64,000 bases of DNA from a virus: the IMG/VR virus record IMGVR_UViG_3300042348_000780; one strand, given 5' to 3'. The notes beneath the pieces were generated by a model, which made no database searches, had not been told where the DNA came from, and was given only the letters and a program-made list of their open reading frames with translations. Shown here in pieces: positions 46,885 through 64,000 of this stretch (its first letter is position 1; every line of letters starts with the position of its first letter). The position numbers and the translations under genes are program-made.

Positions 46885-46976
46885 TAATATTCACATTATT
46901 CTTTTTACCACTTGCTCTTAGTTTCTGGGTTGGAACTTTAGTTGGACGAATACTTGAATTAAAGAAAAAGATATGA
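46875..46976 (+). CDS. Tiny membrane protein (33 aa)
   Basis: MELIIFTLFFLPLALSFWVGTLVGRILELKKKI*; overlaps both neighbours. Confidence 0.45.
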   Translation: MELIIFTLFFLPLALSFWVGTLVGRILELKKKI

Positions 46977-56757: not shown

Positions 56758-57801
56758 ATGGCACTACTAAAATACTACAACTCAAAAATACATGATCTTT
56801 ATCTTTATGATCGTTTAGCAACCACAACTCAGTCATCTATTCCTGTTGGATATAATCCAGATTGCCAATCATATGGAATTGCTGATTTTTCTGGTTGTTG
56901 TGCCAGAAATCGACATTTTTGTACTTTAATTGGAATTACATATGGTGTTCAATTTGATCGTGAAAATGTTAATTTTTGGAATTGTTGTGCATACAGAGGA
57001 GTTCTTATCTCTCCAAAACATATGATTATTTGTGAACATTTCCGTGGACCAAGACCAGATCCAAATGATAATACATCTGGAATTGTTCTTCTTGGTAAAT
57101 CTGGTATTCGTCATACTGTTAAAGTTGTTGCTGTAACTTTAAGTATAGGTTCCGACCAAACACTACTTGAGTTTGATCAACCAGTTCCAGAAGGAGAATT
57201 TTATATTTACAATAAGATCGCTGATCCTGCTTATGTTCCTAATGGAACACATATATGGGTTCAAGATTCTAATGGAAAAATTTATAAAAGAATTTTCAAA
57301 AAGGCAATATTTGTTGATGGAAAATTAACAGCGTGGCAAAGTGATCCATGTATTGATGGTATAAATGATGGTCCTCATACAAGTGGAGATCCTGCAATAT
57401 TCGTCGGTGATTCTGGTTCTCCCGCATTTGTTGTTAATTCAGAAGGAGAAACACTTCTATTAGGTTTAATGTATGGTGGACCTAATTTCCCACAAAAGAC
57501 AATTGATAATATTAATGCAAAACTAAATCCACACGGATATAGTGTCAGTTTAGAAAAAATGACAGCACTTCCACAGGATTTAAATCAAGATGGAAAAATA
57601 GACAGTGTAGATTTGAGTATCTTTATGTCTAATTGGGAAGTAAATGGTGAAATCGCTGATTTTAACAAAGATGGAAAAGTTGATGCTGAAGATATGTCAG
57701 AACTTCTTTCTAAGTGGGGTAGTTATGATTTATCTTCTAGTGCAGTTCATTATACTACTACGGTTACTCCAATAGATCCAAATAATACTAAAAGAATCTG
57801 A
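56758..57801 (+). CDS. Trypsin-like serine protease with C-terminal dockerin/EF-hand-like repeats
   Basis: GVLISPKHMIICEH (His), DQTLLEF (Asp), GDSGSP (Ser); DLNQDGKIDSVDL..W and DFNKDGKVDAEDM..WG. Confidence 0.78.
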   Translation: MALLKYYNSKIHDLYLYDRLATTTQSSIPVGYNPDCQSYGIADFSGCCARNRHFCTLIGITYGVQFDRENVNFWNCCAYRGVLISPKHMIICEHFRGPRPDPNDNTSGIVLLGKSGIRHTVKVVAVTLSIGSDQTLLEFDQPVPEGEFYIYNKIADPAYVPNGTHIWVQDSNGKIYKRIFKKAIFVDGKLTAWQSDPCIDGINDGPHTSGDPAIFVGDSGSPAFVVNSEGETLLLGLMYGGPNFPQKTIDNINAKLNPHGYSVSLEKMTALPQDLNQDGKIDSVDLSIFMSNWEVNGEIADFNKDGKVDAEDMSELLSKWGSYDLSSSAVHYTTTVTPIDPNNTKRI

Positions 57802-58020: not shown

Positions 58021-58734
58021 TTAACCTCTTTTGCGTCTTGGTCCTGTGTAAGCGTCTGGTCCACGCAATTTAAGAATAGCATCTATTTGTGTGGCCACTT
58101 GTGGTGGTTGATTTGGTATTCTTACTTCTCCACGTGATCCACCCAAAGCTGATTTTAAATCTCCAGCTAATGTTTTATCGGTTGGATTTGATCCAAAAGG
58201 AACTCCTCTTACTACTGATGATACCTTAGTTCCTGTTATTTTTGTTGTAGGAACATTTAGAAATAATTCTCCAGTTTCTGGATTTGTATTAATATTCATT
58301 CCTCTAGATCTTGCTAATAATGCAGCTTTTTCTCGATCTGAAGATTTTCCTAAAATGTTAAAAAGCTTTTTGTGGTGTCTAGCCAACATAGCTCTACCTT
58401 CTTTAGTGTCTGGATAGTCTGCTCCTATCATTTCAGATAATATTGATTTATAATGATTTTTTAAATCTTGAGCAGTATAATTACTTTCACCCATTATTAT
58501 ATTATCTGCTCTATTCATTCCAGTTATCCACCTAGTCAATCTTGCAATATTTCTTCGAGCTAGTTCTCTTGCATTATTTCTTCTGTTAGGATCATCAGTT
58601 TTTTCGCTACTATCTAGAATTCCTCTAGTTTTACGATTTAAATCTTTAGCTTGTGACATCCGTTTGTCAATATATCTATTTAATATTCCTCGTCCTCTTG
58701 GGGTGTCTCCGATTTCATTTATTTGCTCTTTCAT
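58021..58734 (-). CDS. Basic putative internal head protein
   Basis: Repeated INE-IGDT..GR / LSE...DT.EGR modules; late promoter upstream. Confidence 0.6.
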   Translation of the reverse strand: MKEQINEIGDTPRGRGILNRYIDKRMSQAKDLNRKTRGILDSSEKTDDPNRRNNARELARRNIARLTRWITGMNRADNIIMGESNYTAQDLKNHYKSILSEMIGADYPDTKEGRAMLARHHKKLFNILGKSSDREKAALLARSRGMNINTNPETGELFLNVPTTKITGTKVSSVVRGVPFGSNPTDKTLAGDLKSALGGSRGEVRIPNQPPQVATQIDAILKLRGPDAYTGPRRKRG

Positions 58735-58749
58735 ATATTTCTCCAGACA

Positions 58750-58761
58750 TATTTATAAATA
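58750..58761. promoter_or_regulatory. Palindromic back-to-back late promoter TATTTATAAATA
   Basis: TATAAATA on + (58754-58761) and on - (58750-58757), between divergent genes. Confidence 0.7.
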
Positions 58762-58766
58762 TTGAT

Positions 58767-59321
58767 ATGTTAATAGCAGGAATTGATTATTCTTTAAATG
58801 GTCCAGCAATCTGTGTATTCGAAGGAAAAGAATATTTTACATTTGAAAAATGTCAATTTTATTTTTTAACCGATGTAAAAAAGAATGCTACTATATTTTT
58901 AAAAAATATTCATGGTAAACTATTTGACGATTATGAAGAAGAGTGTGAAAGATATGACACAATATCAGATTGGGTGATGAATAAAATAATAGGCTGTGAA
59001 CAGGTAGCATTAGAGGATTATGCATTTAATGCTCAAGGAAGAGTATTTCATATAGCAGAAAATACTGGAATATTAAAATATAAATGTTATCAGAATTCTA
59101 TACCACTTGAGGTTGTTTCACCTTCGCATGTGAAGAAAATAGCCACGGGTAAAGGCAATGCTGATAAACTTCAAATGTATCAGGCTTTTTTGAAAGAAAC
59201 TTCTGTCCCATTGAAAGATATAATATCCCCAAATAAAAAAGATATCGGAAATCCAGTTTCCGATATCATTGATTCTTATTATATTTGTAAAAATCTTTTT
59301 TTACAGCTTAAGATTTCTTAG
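58767..59321 (+). CDS. RuvC/RNase H-fold nuclease (resolvase-like)
   Basis: IAGIDYS...PA, LEDY, IAENTG.LK, KK.ATGKGNADK, DIIDS; start reassigned to ATG 58767. Confidence 0.78.
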   Translation: MLIAGIDYSLNGPAICVFEGKEYFTFEKCQFYFLTDVKKNATIFLKNIHGKLFDDYEEECERYDTISDWVMNKIIGCEQVALEDYAFNAQGRVFHIAENTGILKYKCYQNSIPLEVVSPSHVKKIATGKGNADKLQMYQAFLKETSVPLKDIISPNKKDIGNPVSDIIDSYYICKNLFLQLKIS

Positions 59322-59835
59322 TCTTTTTTTCATCTACAAAACCATCACCATTTTTATCTTCACCTTTGCCTTGAAGGTAATACCACGCTAATCCAAAGAC
59401 AAGTGTTAAGTAAAATAATAAAGCATACCAATTCACTCTGCTCATCTTTACTTCTGTGCCTACAGGTAATTTAACTTCGGTCTGTGCTTCAATATTAATC
59501 TTTGTTGTATCAACAGTTTGAATACTAGTATTTTCTGGTAGAATTACAGTAGTATTTTTAGGAATAATAACTTCTTGTGGTTTTTCAATAATTGGTTCTT
59601 CAGATGGTTCTGGTTTTATTATAACCACAGTATCATGCTCTAGAGTTACTTCGGTCTTTTTCTCTGAATCTGTTTTAATATGAGATCCTTTTGGAAGATC
59701 AGCAGTAGTATCTTTTGCTATAACTGTGTCAGTTGTTTTATTAAGAACATCTGGAGTCGTTTCCACACCATTTGTTTTACATACAGACTTACAAGATGCT
59801 AATACACATAGTATTAAAATTAATAGTTTTTTCAT
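59308..59835 (-). CDS. Lipoprotein with C-terminal TM helix (candidate unimolecular spanin)
   Basis: MKKLLILILCVLAS-C lipobox; beta-rich middle; TM WYALLFYLTLVFGLAWYYL; charged tail. Confidence 0.6.
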   Translation of the reverse strand: MKKLLILILCVLASCKSVCKTNGVETTPDVLNKTTDTVIAKDTTADLPKGSHIKTDSEKKTEVTLEHDTVVIIKPEPSEEPIIEKPQEVIIPKNTTVILPENTSIQTVDTTKINIEAQTEVKLPVGTEVKMSRVNWYALLFYLTLVFGLAWYYLQGKGEDKNGDGFVDEKKTKKS

Positions 59836-60266
59836 GATTTATTTCCTGCTGTAGCACTACCAAAATAGAACCCAACAATCGCTAATAAAATCTGGCGATT
59901 CTCTTGGGTAAACAAATATCCATTCACCGTTTGAAAAATAGTTTCTGATGTTTGTGGAATCAAACCAAATAAAATTTCTGGATGTGTTTGATTGATTTCA
60001 ACAACTGTTGGTATTCCAAAGAATGGAAGAACGAATGGTGCTGCTATTGTACCAAACAAAACTGCCAAGACAATGATTTGTCGTACTGCTTTACCAGCAT
60101 CAATCGGTACTCTTTTAGCAGCGGTTTCTCTTGTCTTTTCGTTAAAGTTATTAATATCTAATAGTCTTTTAAAGTTTTCTTGTTCTGATTGGCGTTTTTC
60201 TGCCATATAGCGAAACAAGAATCCAGTAGCAGATCCACCGATAAGTGTTAGAAGTTCTATTGGCAT
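59832..60266 (-). CDS. Holin-like membrane protein
   Basis: Hydrophobic segments; C-terminal AIVGFYFGS. Confidence 0.55.
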   Translation of the reverse strand: MPIELLTLIGGSATGFLFRYMAEKRQSEQENFKRLLDINNFNEKTRETAAKRVPIDAGKAVRQIIVLAVLFGTIAAPFVLPFFGIPTVVEINQTHPEILFGLIPQTSETIFQTVNGYLFTQENRQILLAIVGFYFGSATAGNKS

Positions 60267-60457
60267 TTCTTTTTGACTCCCTGTAAGACAATATAATTTT
60301 GAGGAATATCTTCTGGATTCATTTCTGCTCTTTTGACGGCTGCTTCAAATTCTCTTTTAGTCAAAAGCAATTCATATTGAAAACCATCAGAACTGACATG
60401 TGTACAAAAGACATATTCAAGTGCTTCATTACCTTTTTTTATTTTATTTTTTTTCAT
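60257..60457 (-). CDS. Small hypothetical protein
   Basis: LLLT.REF..A..RA..NPED. Confidence 0.55.
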   Translation of the reverse strand: MKKNKIKKGNEALEYVFCTHVSSDGFQYELLLTKREFEAAVKRAEMNPEDIPQNYIVLQGVKKKCQ

Positions 60458-60493
60458 ATTAGACCTATGAAAGTGTAAAATACAATATAAATC

Positions 60494-60973
60494 TTAATTA
60501 ACACGTTTTCTCCTCAATATTTTTTGTGCTCTGGTATATTTTTTCTGTGCTGATTTGCTCAGAAAAGTATCTGGTAAATCATTAACATTTTCTGGATTTG
60601 GTGATACTCCAGATATTCCACCACCACCAACAGACAATTCTTCATTTAAATAATTCATTATATTTTCAAAAACAATATCTTTATCACCACCAAGTTTTTC
60701 AACATCCTCAGAAAATAAGGAAATAGCCGTGGTTAAATTTTTAAGTTTTGCTTTTGTATTTGGATTTGGAATCTGAGCAAGAAGTTTTTTGATGTTTAAT
60801 ATCAATTGATCATATGGATTTATTTTAGTGTCAATTAATATTTCACCGCTTTCATCTATAATACCATCCATGAATAATTTTGTTTTATTGTATGGTGTGG
60901 TAATATCTTTAATAAATTTAAAAAGAGTAAATGAATTTATTAGTTGATTTATATTTGTTGATTCATTTAACAT
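60494..60973 (-). CDS. Conserved T4-like hypothetical protein
   Basis: FKFIK.ITTP...T..F..GIIDE.G. Confidence 0.65.
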   Translation of the reverse strand: MLNESTNINQLINSFTLFKFIKDITTPYNKTKLFMDGIIDESGEILIDTKINPYDQLILNIKKLLAQIPNPNTKAKLKNLTTAISLFSEDVEKLGGDKDIVFENIMNYLNEELSVGGGGISGVSPNPENVNDLPDTFLSKSAQKKYTRAQKILRRKRVN

Positions 60974-61343
60974 CTTTTAATATCTCTAATATATTTTTAT
61001 CAATTGGTATAGTTTCTATATTTACTTCTGGAATATATGATGGAAGATAGTTTAAATGATATAAAAAAGATTTTAAATATGAATGAAGATTAGATGGTAT
61101 TTTAAAAAATAGTATTCTTGATATATTGTAAGCACCAAACATATTTTGAAGAGTTATGATATGATTTAATAATAATCTTTCTTTTAATATTTGATCTTTT
61201 TTATATTTTAATAACAATCTTTTAATATATTTGATTCTATTTAAATCTTCTTTAAATTCATGAAAACCCACACAACTCGGGTTTTCATATGCCTTCATTG
61301 TAAACATTATAAAAGTATCTGATGTTAACTTTTCACCAAACAT
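60963..61343 (-). CDS. Conserved T4-like hypothetical protein
   Basis: YENP.C...EF.EDL.RIKYIKRLL.KY, LKERL.LNHII.L.N.FG. Confidence 0.7.
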   Translation of the reverse strand: MFGEKLTSDTFIMFTMKAYENPSCVGFHEFKEDLNRIKYIKRLLLKYKKDQILKERLLLNHIITLQNMFGAYNISRILFFKIPSNLHSYLKSFLYHLNYLPSYIPEVNIETIPIDKNILEILKDVK

Positions 61344-61348
61344 TCAAA

Positions 61349-62182
61349 TTATTCGCCACTCAGTGTTTTCATTCCTTTAAACTTCTTCATCAGATGATTA
61401 GAAACACGCTTGATGAGTGCGTCATCTACCTTATTCTTATTTATTTTACCCATACCAGCCAATTTACGAACAGCTGATTTTGCTGCAAAGGTTAATCTTG
61501 TTGTTGCTTCCTCATGAGTAAGTTTTTTCTTACCCTTCATTACAACCAAACTTCTGAATACTGGCTCTATGACCTTTGTCTTGATTTTTGGATTTTTCAT
61601 GATCATGTTCATCACGGAAAGACCCATGTCCTTTGATTCCATAAGCATTTCACCAGATTCATCATATTGTTCTTCAACTTGTGGTGTTGGAGTGTTATTT
61701 TCTGCCTGATCAATTAAACCAGACTTAGTGATCTGTATATCTGTGAAGTACATCTTTCCAGTTGGTGTACCTGTCAAAGTAAAGGAAAGATTTAGAGGAA
61801 CATATTCTTTACCTTTGTCAAATCCATTCTTCAATAAATCATGGGTAGGTGTAGTTCCGAAGATTTCTCCATAACGATTGAGTTGAAAGGAATGACTTCC
61901 TGTTGATAATTTAGTTTTGGAATTAAAATCAAAATCAAGTCCAGCATGGTTAAGTTTAGATCTAAGTAGATTTATTGCGGCTTCTGGTTCAATATAAGAA
62001 CCTCCGAGATAAGCATTGACGAATGCCTGCATTCTCTTTAGTTGGTCTGGATCGTCACGGAAAAGGCCAAAATCACTATGTGCTGATCTTGGTGTCTGAG
62101 TAAGATATTTATCGAATCCAGAACCGTCAACGGTTTGTTCATTTTCAACTAATCTTGATAATAGTTTTTTGAAAAGACTCAT
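61349..62182 (-). CDS. Hypothetical protein, possible internal head protein
   Basis: MSLFKKLLSRLVE N-terminus; internal LME site. Confidence 0.55.
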   Translation of the reverse strand: MSLFKKLLSRLVENEQTVDGSGFDKYLTQTPRSAHSDFGLFRDDPDQLKRMQAFVNAYLGGSYIEPEAAINLLRSKLNHAGLDFDFNSKTKLSTGSHSFQLNRYGEIFGTTPTHDLLKNGFDKGKEYVPLNLSFTLTGTPTGKMYFTDIQITKSGLIDQAENNTPTPQVEEQYDESGEMLMESKDMGLSVMNMIMKNPKIKTKVIEPVFRSLVVMKGKKKLTHEEATTRLTFAAKSAVRKLAGMGKINKNKVDDALIKRVSNHLMKKFKGMKTLSGE

Positions 62183-63099
62183 TATGCTCTCCCTTTAGAT
62201 TTTCTTGATTTTGTTATTTTTTTTGCAGCAGCTTCTGCTTTTCTAGCTTTCTTTTTTGCTTCATCTCTGCCTCTATCTAAGGATCTGATCAATTTCTTTT
62301 GATCCTTGAGTTTTTGTTCTGCTGTTTTTTCTTTTTTCTTTGGTGCAGCTTTTGCTTTCTTTGACTTCTTGGTTCTGCGCTTTTCACCTGGCTGTGCAGC
62401 ACCCTTCTTACCACCACGCATCATCATGGTTATAAATGTGGCATATCGATAGCGAGCATTTTCATCAGTATCATTGCCCTTGGTTGCTCTTATTTTTGCT
62501 TTTACTTTTCTGCTGCGAGCAATTCTATCTCTTTTAATAATCTCAGCCTTTGTCATAGTGCCACGATTATCTGGATTTACGATTTCTTCAGAGACTATTC
62601 CAGAATTCAATAATGCTTTCTCAACAATACCTTTTTTTGGTAATTTTCGTTTTGAATTATTTTTTCTCAATGATTTAATCTGTTGATAAATATAACCTCT
62701 AACAAGACTAGCATCTCGGTTTCTTTGTTTAATCTCTTTTGGTGTTAAAACCTTAGGATCTACAGGTGGTTTATTTACGATTTCTTCAGAGACTATTCCA
62801 GAATTATTTGATTCTGTCCGATATTTTTTCCGAAAAATTAATTGCCTATCACGAATAATCTTATGTGCATTTTTAGGTAGAACTCCTCTAGCAATTAATT
62901 GGTTTACATAATTCCTTTTTGCTGGTGAATTTCCTCTACCAAATAATCTATTAACGTGTATAAGCATTTCCCTATGTTTATCATCTGCATATTCGATTTC
63001 TTCAGAGACTATTCCAGAATTCAATAGTGCTTGCTCAACACGCTCATAGACATTAGCGTTTTCTCTTGCTTTTGATTTTAGTTCTTTTTTTGATTTCAT
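62182..63099 (-). CDS. Very basic modular putative internal head (poly)protein
   Basis: NSGIVSEEI occurs three times, separating Lys/Arg-rich modules. Confidence 0.65.
   Translation of the reverse strand: MKSKKELKSKARENANVYERVEQALLNSGIVSEEIEYADDKHREMLIHVNRLFGRGNSPAKRNYVNQLIARGVLPKNAHKIIRDRQLIFRKKYRTESNNSGIVSEEIVNKPPVDPKVLTPKEIKQRNRDASLVRGYIYQQIKSLRKNNSKRKLPKKGIVEKALLNSGIVSEEIVNPDNRGTMTKAEIIKRDRIARSRKVKAKIRATKGNDTDENARYRYATFITMMMRGGKKGAAQPGEKRRTKKSKKAKAAPKKKEKTAEQKLKDQKKLIRSLDRGRDEAKKKARKAEAAAKKITKSRKSKGRA
62580..63021. repeat. Three identical 28-nt direct repeats CGATTTCTTCAGAGACTATTCCAGAATT
   Basis: Copies at 62580, 62778 and 62994; periods of 198 and 216 nt keep the frame. Confidence 0.9.
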
Positions 63100-63118
63100 T
63101 GTTTTCCTCTATATTTAT

Positions 63119-63778
63119 TTAATATTTACATTGTCTTCCAGCAGGGCATGATGCCTTCGATCCTTTTGGGCCAGCCCATAGTTTTTTACATGCCCAATAC
63201 TGAGCAGATAATTTTGATTTCTTTTCATCACATTTATGTCTGGCTCTAAATGATTTTCTAGCAGCAGACGAGTAATTGTGACCATAACCTTTAGCACCAA
63301 AATGTACGATTTGTTCCTTGCCACCTTCACATGCCTTTACCATCATCTTTTTTCCAGGACTTGTGGATGGAACAGGTTTATTACATTTCATTGAATCTTT
63401 TGATTCATTTACTGATTTCCATTTTCCACCCTTACTATTATAAATTCCAACCAATCTTCCCATTTTTAATGCGCCATGTTTTTGATGTGCATTTTGTGCT
63501 TTTATTCTTGCCCATAGAGATGGATTGGTTGGGACGTTTTCTTCACTTAAATGAGAACTTACACGTTCTCTGCTTTTTTGTTTTCTGCGTATGGCTTTTA
63601 TTTTTTGAGATTTAGTCATTTGTCCCCAGGTTTCTGGTGTCTTTCTAGATATTTTTCTTGATGGTCTACACTTTGGATATTTACCTCTTTTATAAGATTC
63701 ACCAGATCCACATTCTTTACCATATTGGTCTTTCCATTTTTCTTTAAACCATCTACGAAGATCTTCTTTAATGTCCAT
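63119..63778 (-). CDS. Basic multi-module phage protein (putative internal head protein)
   Basis: Modules IKE-DLRRWFKEKW..KYPKCRP, LSE-ENVPTNPSLW and VNE-...VHFG...SFRARHKC...YWAC. Confidence 0.65.
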   Translation of the reverse strand: MDIKEDLRRWFKEKWKDQYGKECGSGESYKRGKYPKCRPSRKISRKTPETWGQMTKSQKIKAIRRKQKSRERVSSHLSEENVPTNPSLWARIKAQNAHQKHGALKMGRLVGIYNSKGGKWKSVNESKDSMKCNKPVPSTSPGKKMMVKACEGGKEQIVHFGAKGYGHNYSSAARKSFRARHKCDEKKSKLSAQYWACKKLWAGPKGSKASCPAGRQCKY

Positions 63779-64000
63779 TATCAGCTCTATTCTCAGATTT
63801 ATCTCTGACTCTCAAGTTTTTAACAGAATTATTTTGTGGGTTTCCATCTTTATGATCCACGTCCTTGCCATCACCTTTACGAACTCTTCCCATCTTCATT
63901 AATTTTCTTCTGGCAAGAACACGCTTGACTCTATTTGCTCTTTGTTTTGCTTTTGAATGATAATTATCATATTCTCTTCTGTAGTTTCTTGCTTTTTTCT
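63768..64000 (-). CDS. HNH-domain protein (5'-partial)
   Basis: Minus strand reads RNYRREYDNYH...GDGKDVDHKDGNPQNNSVKNLRV...NRADNGH*. Confidence 0.75.
   Translation of the reverse strand, partial: KKARNYRREYDNYHSKAKQRANRVKRVLARRKLMKMGRVRKGDGKDVDHKDGNPQNNSVKNLRVRDKSENRADNGH

Follow-up and report, generated by a model that had tools for sequence, protein, structure and literature searches.

In phage T4, the protease gp21 recognises the motif L/I-X-E and cuts after the Glu (PMC9026906, PMC5694885), an Asp at P1 prevents processing (PMC9026906), and the head proteins gp22, gp67 and gp68 are cut into short fragments, with redundant sites being usual (PMC5694885, PMC9026906). The lysines of the T4 internal proteins contact DNA phosphates (PMC3012670). 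As far as later accounts relate the work on IPI, IPII and IPIII and on the polymorphic ip loci of T-even phages (Mullaney and Black 1996 and Repoila et al. 1994, via PMC9026906, PMC3012670 and PMC12373910), these internal proteins and ip cassettes are mutually unrelated, share homology only in the conserved DNA encoding their leader, and form a variable hot spot. Here, we analysed a gene for a basic protein of 305 amino acids (aa) in IMG/VR virus record IMGVR_UViG_3300042348_000780; the whole stretch analysed, 64,000 nucleotides (nt), is called the window below. This gene carries three identical 28-nt repeats in frame, and the known kinds of protein behind it are the T4-type internal and processed head proteins and the polyvalent proteins. 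We lean, somewhat beyond an even chance, towards reading its product from the sequence as a late, head-internal basic polyprotein that would be cut at its linkers by the prohead protease, the repeat DNA serving as homology for in-frame gain and loss of modules.

Like the T4 internal proteins, the units described here are small basic proteins of T4-type phages at variable loci, with a conserved peptide ending in a candidate gp21 site ahead of them. However, each T4 cargo has a separate gene and its own 10-residue N-terminal targeting leader, whereas the present units share a single reading frame, with the conserved peptide inside the chain and in a copy number that varies among near-identical strains, and the protein does not open with residues matching the phage's own leader. 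The locus also resembles gp22, gp67 and gp68 and the inner-body or ejection proteins of phiKZ, 201phi2-1 and SPN3US, which are head-internal precursors cut after Glu at several short motifs (PMC5694885, PMC9026906), as is predicted here; their redundant neighbouring sites are similar to the paired V-Y-E/V-S-E and I-V-E/V-S-E of the present protein. In contrast, the T4 core and giant-phage proteins are acidic scaffolds or large proteins of fixed architecture, the giant phages use S/A-X-E, and neither cassette-number polymorphism nor nucleotide-identical site repeats have been described for them.

The polyvalent proteins (Iyer et al. 2017, PMC5512222) likewise join several small mobile domains in one late-gene polypeptide, for which proteolytic release has been proposed. 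They contain their own embedded peptidase (a zincin-like MPTase) and enzymatic effector domains, whereas the cut proposed here would occur in trans: no peptidase domain was matched by Pfam or PHROG in the 305-aa protein, its neighbours or ten long relatives. A further relative is T4-GC119, a hypothetical protein of several T4-like cyanophages that lies in the gp16-gp17 variable region, inside a proposed mobile cassette beside an endonuclease, with no function given (Sullivan et al. 2010, PMC3037559). It has the same DUF5872-type modules and hydrophobic-x-E junctions, but lacks the C domain and the exact repeats described below. As far as the searched literature shows, neither the rule of a module behind a site nor the cassette polymorphism has been described.

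Repeats and modules of the 305-aa protein

The gene, its repeats and the pieces of its product, defined by dividing the chain after V-S-E, are as follows (pI, isoelectric point; pLDDT, predicted local distance difference test score).

62182..63099, minus strand: basic-protein gene, 305 aa, pI 10.6, 86 Lys+Arg against 34 Asp+Glu; its stop overlaps the start of the next gene
62994..63021, minus strand: repeat copy 1, residues 27-35, NSGIVSEEI, with V-S-E at residues 31-33
62778..62805, minus strand: repeat copy 2, residues 99-107, NSGIVSEEI
62580..62607, minus strand: repeat copy 3, residues 165-173, NSGIVSEEI; the copy kept in every orthologue, directly ahead of the conserved C domain
63001..63099, minus strand: N segment, residues 1-33, 33 aa, pI 9.3, with candidate sites V-Y-E19 and V-S-E33; lacks 20 codons of the one-copy alleles
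62785..63000, minus strand: module A, residues 34-105, 72 aa, pI 10.3; an orphan, present only in the three-copy (window) and four-copy alleles
62587..62784, minus strand: module B, residues 106-171, 66 aa, pI 10.3; one of the paralogue set B, B' and B''; contains I-V-E160 and V-S-E171
62404..62586, minus strand: conserved C domain, residues 172-232; begins E-I-V-N after the candidate cut; helical core 181-230, pLDDT 85-97
62185..62403, minus strand: Lys-rich tail, residues 233-305; mostly one long predicted helix

The 28-nt core AATTCTGGAATAGTCTCTGAAGAAATCG is present exactly three times in the 64-kb window, and a search of the whole window for further copies found only these three, all within open reading frame (ORF) 62182..63099, whose coding strand is the minus strand. 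Every copy is in frame and starts at a codon boundary (residues 27, 99 and 165), and the spacings of 216 and 198 nt correspond to 72 and 66 codons. Coordinates and translation thus confirm the three exact in-frame repeats encoding NSGIVSEEI that the initial annotation had reported at these distances. Identity extends beyond the core: copies 2 and 3 match exactly across 33 nt, while copies 1 and 3 agree over ~48 nt at ~94%. Orthologues in loci L004-L006 encode nearly the same junction peptide with other synonymous codons. Therefore, codon constraint does not explain the repeat identity within the gene, which then reflects homogenisation or recent exchange among the three copies. The same comparison led us to reject the repeat as a DNA-level regulatory element, since the peptide is conserved while the codons differ in other lineages. 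A precursor with multiple cores, as in ribosomally synthesised and post-translationally modified peptides (RiPPs), was rejected as well because the units are helical basic modules of 66-72 aa in a virion-gene operon.

The description of the inner pieces as Lys/Arg-rich modules of 66-72 aa agrees with the values listed for A and B, and the T..EI..R.R motif ascribed to two modules is present in B and C, both of which contain T-x-x-E-I-x-x-R-x-R. The C domain and tail together (residues 172-305) comprise 134 aa with a pI of 11.0. That the modules are mutually dissimilar, as was also claimed, is correct in one respect, since A is unrelated to the B set. It fails in another: the B set consists of paralogues that are 71-91% identical, and the beginnings of A and B both resemble that of the C domain; in the four-copy allele, A opens with E-I-V-Y-P-D-D, compared with E-I-V-N-P-D-N at the C start.

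The 305-aa protein contains five [ILVM]-x-E sites (V-Y-E19, V-S-E33, V-S-E105, I-V-E160 and V-S-E171), all located in the junction segments. None falls within the 242 interior residues, for which 3.4 are expected from shuffles (P=0.02). In the four-copy allele, where the second repeat has degenerated to IVSGENVNE, V-N-E is still available five residues on. An AlphaFold2 model built from a 33-sequence alignment shows helices with coil between them at residues 28-39, 100-119 and 166-175; pLDDT is below 50 at positions that include residues 30-38 and 100-110, and averages 56-60 over residues 161-180. This low-confidence coil at the repeats places the conserved motif in a predicted exposed linker outside the fold.

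Junction motif, C domain and portable modules

An exhaustive phmmer search with residues 1-240 against 1.84 billion representatives of 50%-identity clusters returned 66 clusters. Beyond the query's own cluster, all matches fall on residues ~166-232, and module A had no match outside that cluster in the same search. These relatives are 77-758 aa long and have the C domain at their C-terminus, with a Lys-rich tail behind it. Numbered from the candidate cut, the alignment of the 66 sequences shows a hydrophobic residue at P3 in 63 (I 34, L 15, V 11, M 3), any residue at P2, and E at P1 in all but one (65/66), while P4-P10 are unconserved. Behind the cut, P1' is E in 66/66, and P2'-P4' read [IV]-V-N. 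As a sequence pattern, the junction motif across the C-domain family matches the T4 gp21 motif L/I-X-E. The proposal of the initial annotation that the repeat encodes a prohead-protease-type site is thus consistent with the junction sequences of 66 relatives.

The C domain (~60 aa) is a new, undescribed family. The 305-aa protein belongs to no Pfam or PHROG family, and tblastn of it against 50,697 phage records gave no match. The C domain and modules A and B were likewise without a match in Pfam, PHROGs or a PDB profile search, Foldseek of the model against the PDB returned none at E<=0.001, and Atlas look-ups for the C domain and the modules yielded no usable match. The start of the C domain, N-P-D-N-R-G-T-M-T-K-A-E-I, aligns with the EF-hand loops of P0060, a eukaryote-like protein of 1450 aa with EF-hand repeats; this phmmer match is marginal and was judged spurious. 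An EF-hand reading of the C start was rejected, as position 1 is an invariant N, positions 3 and 5 vary (D/E/K/Q and R/A/K), and only G6 and E12 fit. With the Ca-ligand positions unconserved among the phage proteins, the likeness is probably a convergent helix-loop-helix.

The motif is not confined to the C domain. The upstream neighbour was described in the initial annotation as another string of modules, and it is indeed composed of portable modules joined at hydrophobic-x-E:

63119..63778, minus strand: upstream module string, 219 aa, with MDIKE, the DUF5872 C-half, HLSE|E, a PTNPSLW module (DUF5872 N-half), SVNE|S and a DUF5754-like Cys module, in this order (the vertical stroke marks the candidate cut)

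In more distant relatives (loci L008, L009, L011, L014 and L015), the C domain follows the modules of this neighbour within a single fused protein of 355-376 aa, with the junctions KINE|E, SLNE|E, SVNE|Q, AMNE|E, QLSE|E and VVSE|E. Overall, the C domain is found behind DUF5872 halves, the CxC module, DUF5661 and DUF6321, the last two in longer relatives, and the DUF modules recombine in many orders. In T4-like relatives, the DUF5872 C-half (DLRxWF), the DUF5872 N-half (PTNPxLW) and the CxC module always have hydrophobic-x-E directly ahead of them, either internally or as a leader of 4-7 residues at the protein start (MINE, MITE, MDIKE, MLNE, MIME, MKQINE), and DUF5754 in T4-like phages has such sites ahead too. 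The T4-like pelagiphage HTVC008M has an acidic propeptide full of hydrophobic-x-E sites ahead of DUF5754, and gene T4-GC119 of cyanophage S-BM3 (L012:2066-3079) strings the same modules together with the junctions VMKE|DLR and YIEE|KNVPTNP. In contrast, free-standing DUF5872 halves start without such a leader in P-SCSP2 (a T7-like cyanopodovirus), pelagiphage HTVC027P and phage DSL-LC04, and DUF5754 is bare in the podovirus HTVC106P, a pelagiphage. A Flavobacterium podovirus copy that starts MAE, fitting only through its initiator Met, was counted neither way. Since the sites are present in T4-like homologues and absent from non-T4 ones, the site travels with the phage type and not with the module fold.

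Concerning the modules themselves, Pfam DUF5872 combines two modules that can be separated (PTNPxLW...GGGW and DLRxWF...CRP...TP), which occur apart, in reverse order or with others between them (window 63119-63778; L008, L009:5143-6261, L011, L014:5215-6282). From these sequences, the family model seems to merge two units. In P-SCSP2 (L023:595-855), the free-standing DUF5872 C-half protein is encoded between the scaffold and major capsid genes, which hints at a head-related role of this module outside T4-like phages.

The conservation of the motif also allows another interpretation, in which the protein is an uncleaved multi-module DNA-binding or DNA-condensing protein, histone-H1-like through its Lys-rich tail, and the motif, either the point where the C-domain structure begins or a short binding motif, was copied by tandem duplication together with the first residues of that domain. 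We regard this as possible, though on the unlikely side. It would explain why E-E-[IV]-V-N is invariant over the 66 relatives to an extent that exceeds the needs of a gp21 site, as this peptide may also, or instead, serve folding or binding. It also accords with the C-like start of B and of the first residues of A, and with N-x-x-N-x-G-T-M-T-K-x-E-I being near enough to an EF-hand loop to match P0060, although the acidic positions 3 and 5 of such a loop are not conserved. Furthermore, the 305-aa protein starts MKSKKELKSKARE and lacks the capsid-targeting leader of its clade, for which the pattern is MK[ST]FK..[IL].E compared with MKTYQEFIAE in T4.

Besides this missing leader and the extended motif, several points weigh against processing at the linkers. 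All three repeats of the window have V at P3 (V-S-E) and not the canonical L/I, which is a conservative departure. The total number of [ILVM]-x-E sites is not enriched (five observed, 4.3 expected), the motif being short and frequent by chance. The C domain is absent from cultured phages, and the clean non-T4 controls amount to four proteins from four phages and three module types, none of which has a C domain. What tells against an unprocessed protein is that P3 and P1 are fixed while P2 is free, the pattern of a protease site, and that the motif is predicted to lie outside the well-modelled AlphaFold core. In addition, hydrophobic-x-E stands ahead of unrelated modules and is missing in non-T4 homologues of the three module types, and module A sits after the motif without having a C-like fold.

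Module number among near-identical strains

Alleles of the gene were retrieved by a word-indexed search of 5.8 billion proteins. They fall into four architectures:

381-aa allele: four repeat copies, N-A-B'-B-C
305-aa allele (window): three repeat copies, N-A-B-C
268-aa allele: two repeat copies, longer N-B''-C
180-187-aa alleles: one repeat copy, longer N-C

The 381-, 268- and 180-187-aa alleles are 78-93% identical to the 305-aa protein, and a further one-copy form of 176 aa is 59% identical to it. The exact 305-aa protein was found on 25 contigs, one of them 144 kb long, the four-copy allele on three and a one-copy allele on six. Module content is therefore not fixed among orthologues, as the number of modules varies between conserved repeats. 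Their order is constant (A, then B-type, then C), and the copy number alone changes. Of the module gain, loss or shuffling suggested in the initial annotation, gain and loss are borne out by the one, two, three or four repeats among orthologues, while a shuffled order was never seen.

Locus L001 shows this at close range. Its flanks are 97.7-99.0% identical to the window, yet it encodes a 187-aa one-copy form, and the two differ by 414 nt, precisely the stretch between copy 1 and copy 3, and by a clean 60-nt in-frame deletion in the N segment of the window allele. Between the three- and four-copy alleles, the N segment (33 aa) and the C domain with its tail (134 aa) are identical, while A differs at 8 of 72 positions and B at 6 of 65 plus a 7-aa indel; this divergence is uneven (Fisher P=1e-5). 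In allele P0010, from a lineage that is ~35% identical, the same junction has received an unrelated module, bordered by LLVKEE and QVNEE, and this module also heads a separate 120-aa protein, P0025.

Regarding the N-segment deletion, it lies at window 63040-63060 (minus strand) relative to L001:10041-10100. The deleted 60 nt encode a YSKSRAYAIAN-type segment similar to the YPSAYAN motif in the PTNPxLW module. No direct repeat is obvious at the breakpoints, and the adjoining 78 nt are 93.6% identical to L001, compared with 99% elsewhere.

That the repeats are an assembly artefact, which had been named as a ground for discarding the idea, is very unlikely: the exact 305-aa protein recurs on 25 contigs, the other architectures come from independent contigs and other samples, a single read can span the 28-nt repeat, and every copy keeps the frame. 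Biologically more plausible, but still improbable in our judgement, is that slippage or unequal crossing-over, near-neutral in effect, produced the copy-number differences in a basic protein that evolves fast and has a loose structure, so that module number would be functionally meaningless and repeat identity a sign of recent duplication. The paralogy of the B-type modules, the absence of homologues of A and B elsewhere, the restriction of multi-copy alleles to one narrow lineage plus P0010, and the fact that most alleles are one-copy all agree with this. However, the repeats are identical in nucleotides, while of the sequences between them, A is unrelated and B shows only ~25-38% likeness to the C start. 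Identical repeats beside unlike modules require more than a single recent duplication, namely homogenisation or exchange at the repeat. Moreover, every indel is in frame and module-sized, and the inner modules retain open frames, basic charge and helical predictions.

Genomic context and proposed role

The window belongs to a T4-like setting. Its split DNA polymerase is closest to gp43 of T4-like cyanophages (~47% identity), it carries DnaB-type helicase, ribonucleotide reductase, SbcC-like and RuvC-like genes, and the protein encoded at 46973 begins with MKTFKQFIKE, which closely resembles the capsid targeting sequence of T4. The completeness of related IMG/VR fragments (20-30 kb) is rated at 14-17%, from which a genome size of around 175 kb follows. 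For a gp21-type protease, five related IMG/VR records were searched for PF03420 without a match, a result that is uninformative because each is a 14-17% fragment and the control gave no match either. Around the basic-protein gene and the module string upstream of it lie these genes:

63768..64000, minus strand: C-terminal end of the first operon gene, HNH_3 domain; 849 aa in L001 (L001:6783-9332)
61349..62182, minus strand: downstream gene, 277 aa, with the capsid-targeting-like leader MSLFKKLLSRLVE
60963..61343, minus strand: DUF7207 gene, a conserved downstream partner
60494..60973, minus strand: gene starting MLNE, a conserved downstream partner

The genes are tightly packed, and their order is kept across the clade. 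Position 1 is held by a protein of ~840-1,130 aa, whose forms of 839-849 aa end in an HNH_3 domain, and position 2 by the variable module protein, or by a ~205-aa protein where the modules are fused into gene 3. The basic-protein gene, the gene with the capsid-targeting-like leader, DUF7207 and a gene that starts MLNE in the window, L001 and L004 follow as positions 3-6. Relatives of the 277-aa gene start MKRFKELRNE, MKRFKELRTE or MKRFKELRSE, and MISFTKFIKE also occurs at some loci. A candidate T4-type late promoter, TATAAATA, lies 9 nt ahead of the first operon gene in L001; the same point in the window falls past base 64000, and no exact TATAAATA is present on the minus strand within window 58800-64000.

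Several other features of the region were observed. The first operon gene of L001 (849 aa) begins with a strongly basic region and ends in the HNH_3 nuclease domain; its product may be a packaged nuclease or may drive recombination at the variable locus, and an endonuclease similarly adjoins the cyanophage T4-GC119 cassette (Sullivan et al. 2010). At window 59830-59835, L001 has two extra genes (L001:12911-14355) for proteins of 386 aa (leader MKSFKRYILE) and 95 aa. In their place, the window has the near-orphan ORF 58021..58734, which lies behind a separate TATAAATA at 58750-58757; the initial annotation had described this ORF, too, as a string of modules, and two relatives only were found for it. 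Strains of 98-99% identity gain and lose genes throughout this region, a hot spot of such changes. At window 56758-57801 (plus strand), a late gene encodes a dockerin/EF-hand-like tail (Pfam Dockerin_1, E=7.5e-8).

In the head-internal polyprotein that we favour, the precursor would consist of helical modules, namely the N segment, the orphan A, B and the conserved C domain with its Lys-rich tail, joined by unstructured linkers whose hydrophobic-x-Glu core would be the site for a T4-type prohead protease. It would enter the prohead together with the internal proteins encoded around it and be cut there after Glu at each linker, giving basic pieces of ~3-15 kDa that may stay with the packed DNA as counter-ions, or be cargo that is released together with it. 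In the gene, the identical stretch of 28-48 nt that codes for the linker would offer homology to the phage recombination system. Unequal exchange could then add or remove whole modules, and it would keep the frame because the copies are spaced by a whole number of codons, yielding the 0-3 inner modules seen among near-identical strains. Packaging, cleavage, what becomes of the fragments, what they do and how recombination proceeds are all inferred. The initial annotation went further in calling the pieces packaged effector peptides; nothing indicates effectors, and given the Lys-rich tail, charge neutralisation of packed DNA is at least as likely a role.

A broader proposal, which we consider doubtful, is that aquatic T4-like phages build head-internal cargo polyproteins from a pool of portable modules (the EEIVN domain, the DUF5872 halves, DUF5754, DUF5661, DUF6321 and orphans like A and B). 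Each module would carry its own prohead-protease site, the DNA of that site would be the in-frame recombination handle by which strains gain or lose injected peptides as single-exon cassettes, and these peptides would act on the host, for example against defence systems, beyond charge neutralisation.

The locus provides a clear natural case in which a repeat encoding a predicted protease site at the same time determines where strains gain or lose modules. T4-GC119 of the cultured phage S-BM3 is a place where the processing prediction is testable; the text and supplements of PMC3037559 contain no virion proteomics for it. If the reading we favour is true, it would give DUF5872, DUF5754, DUF5661, DUF6321 and the new conserved domain their first functional context. 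It would also supply a sequence rule for processed head cargo in uncultured T4-like phages, namely a module behind hydrophobic-x-E, whether internal or in a leader of 4-7 residues. The paradigm of the T4 internal proteins would then widen from one gene, one leader and one cargo to an in-frame cassette array processed in trans.

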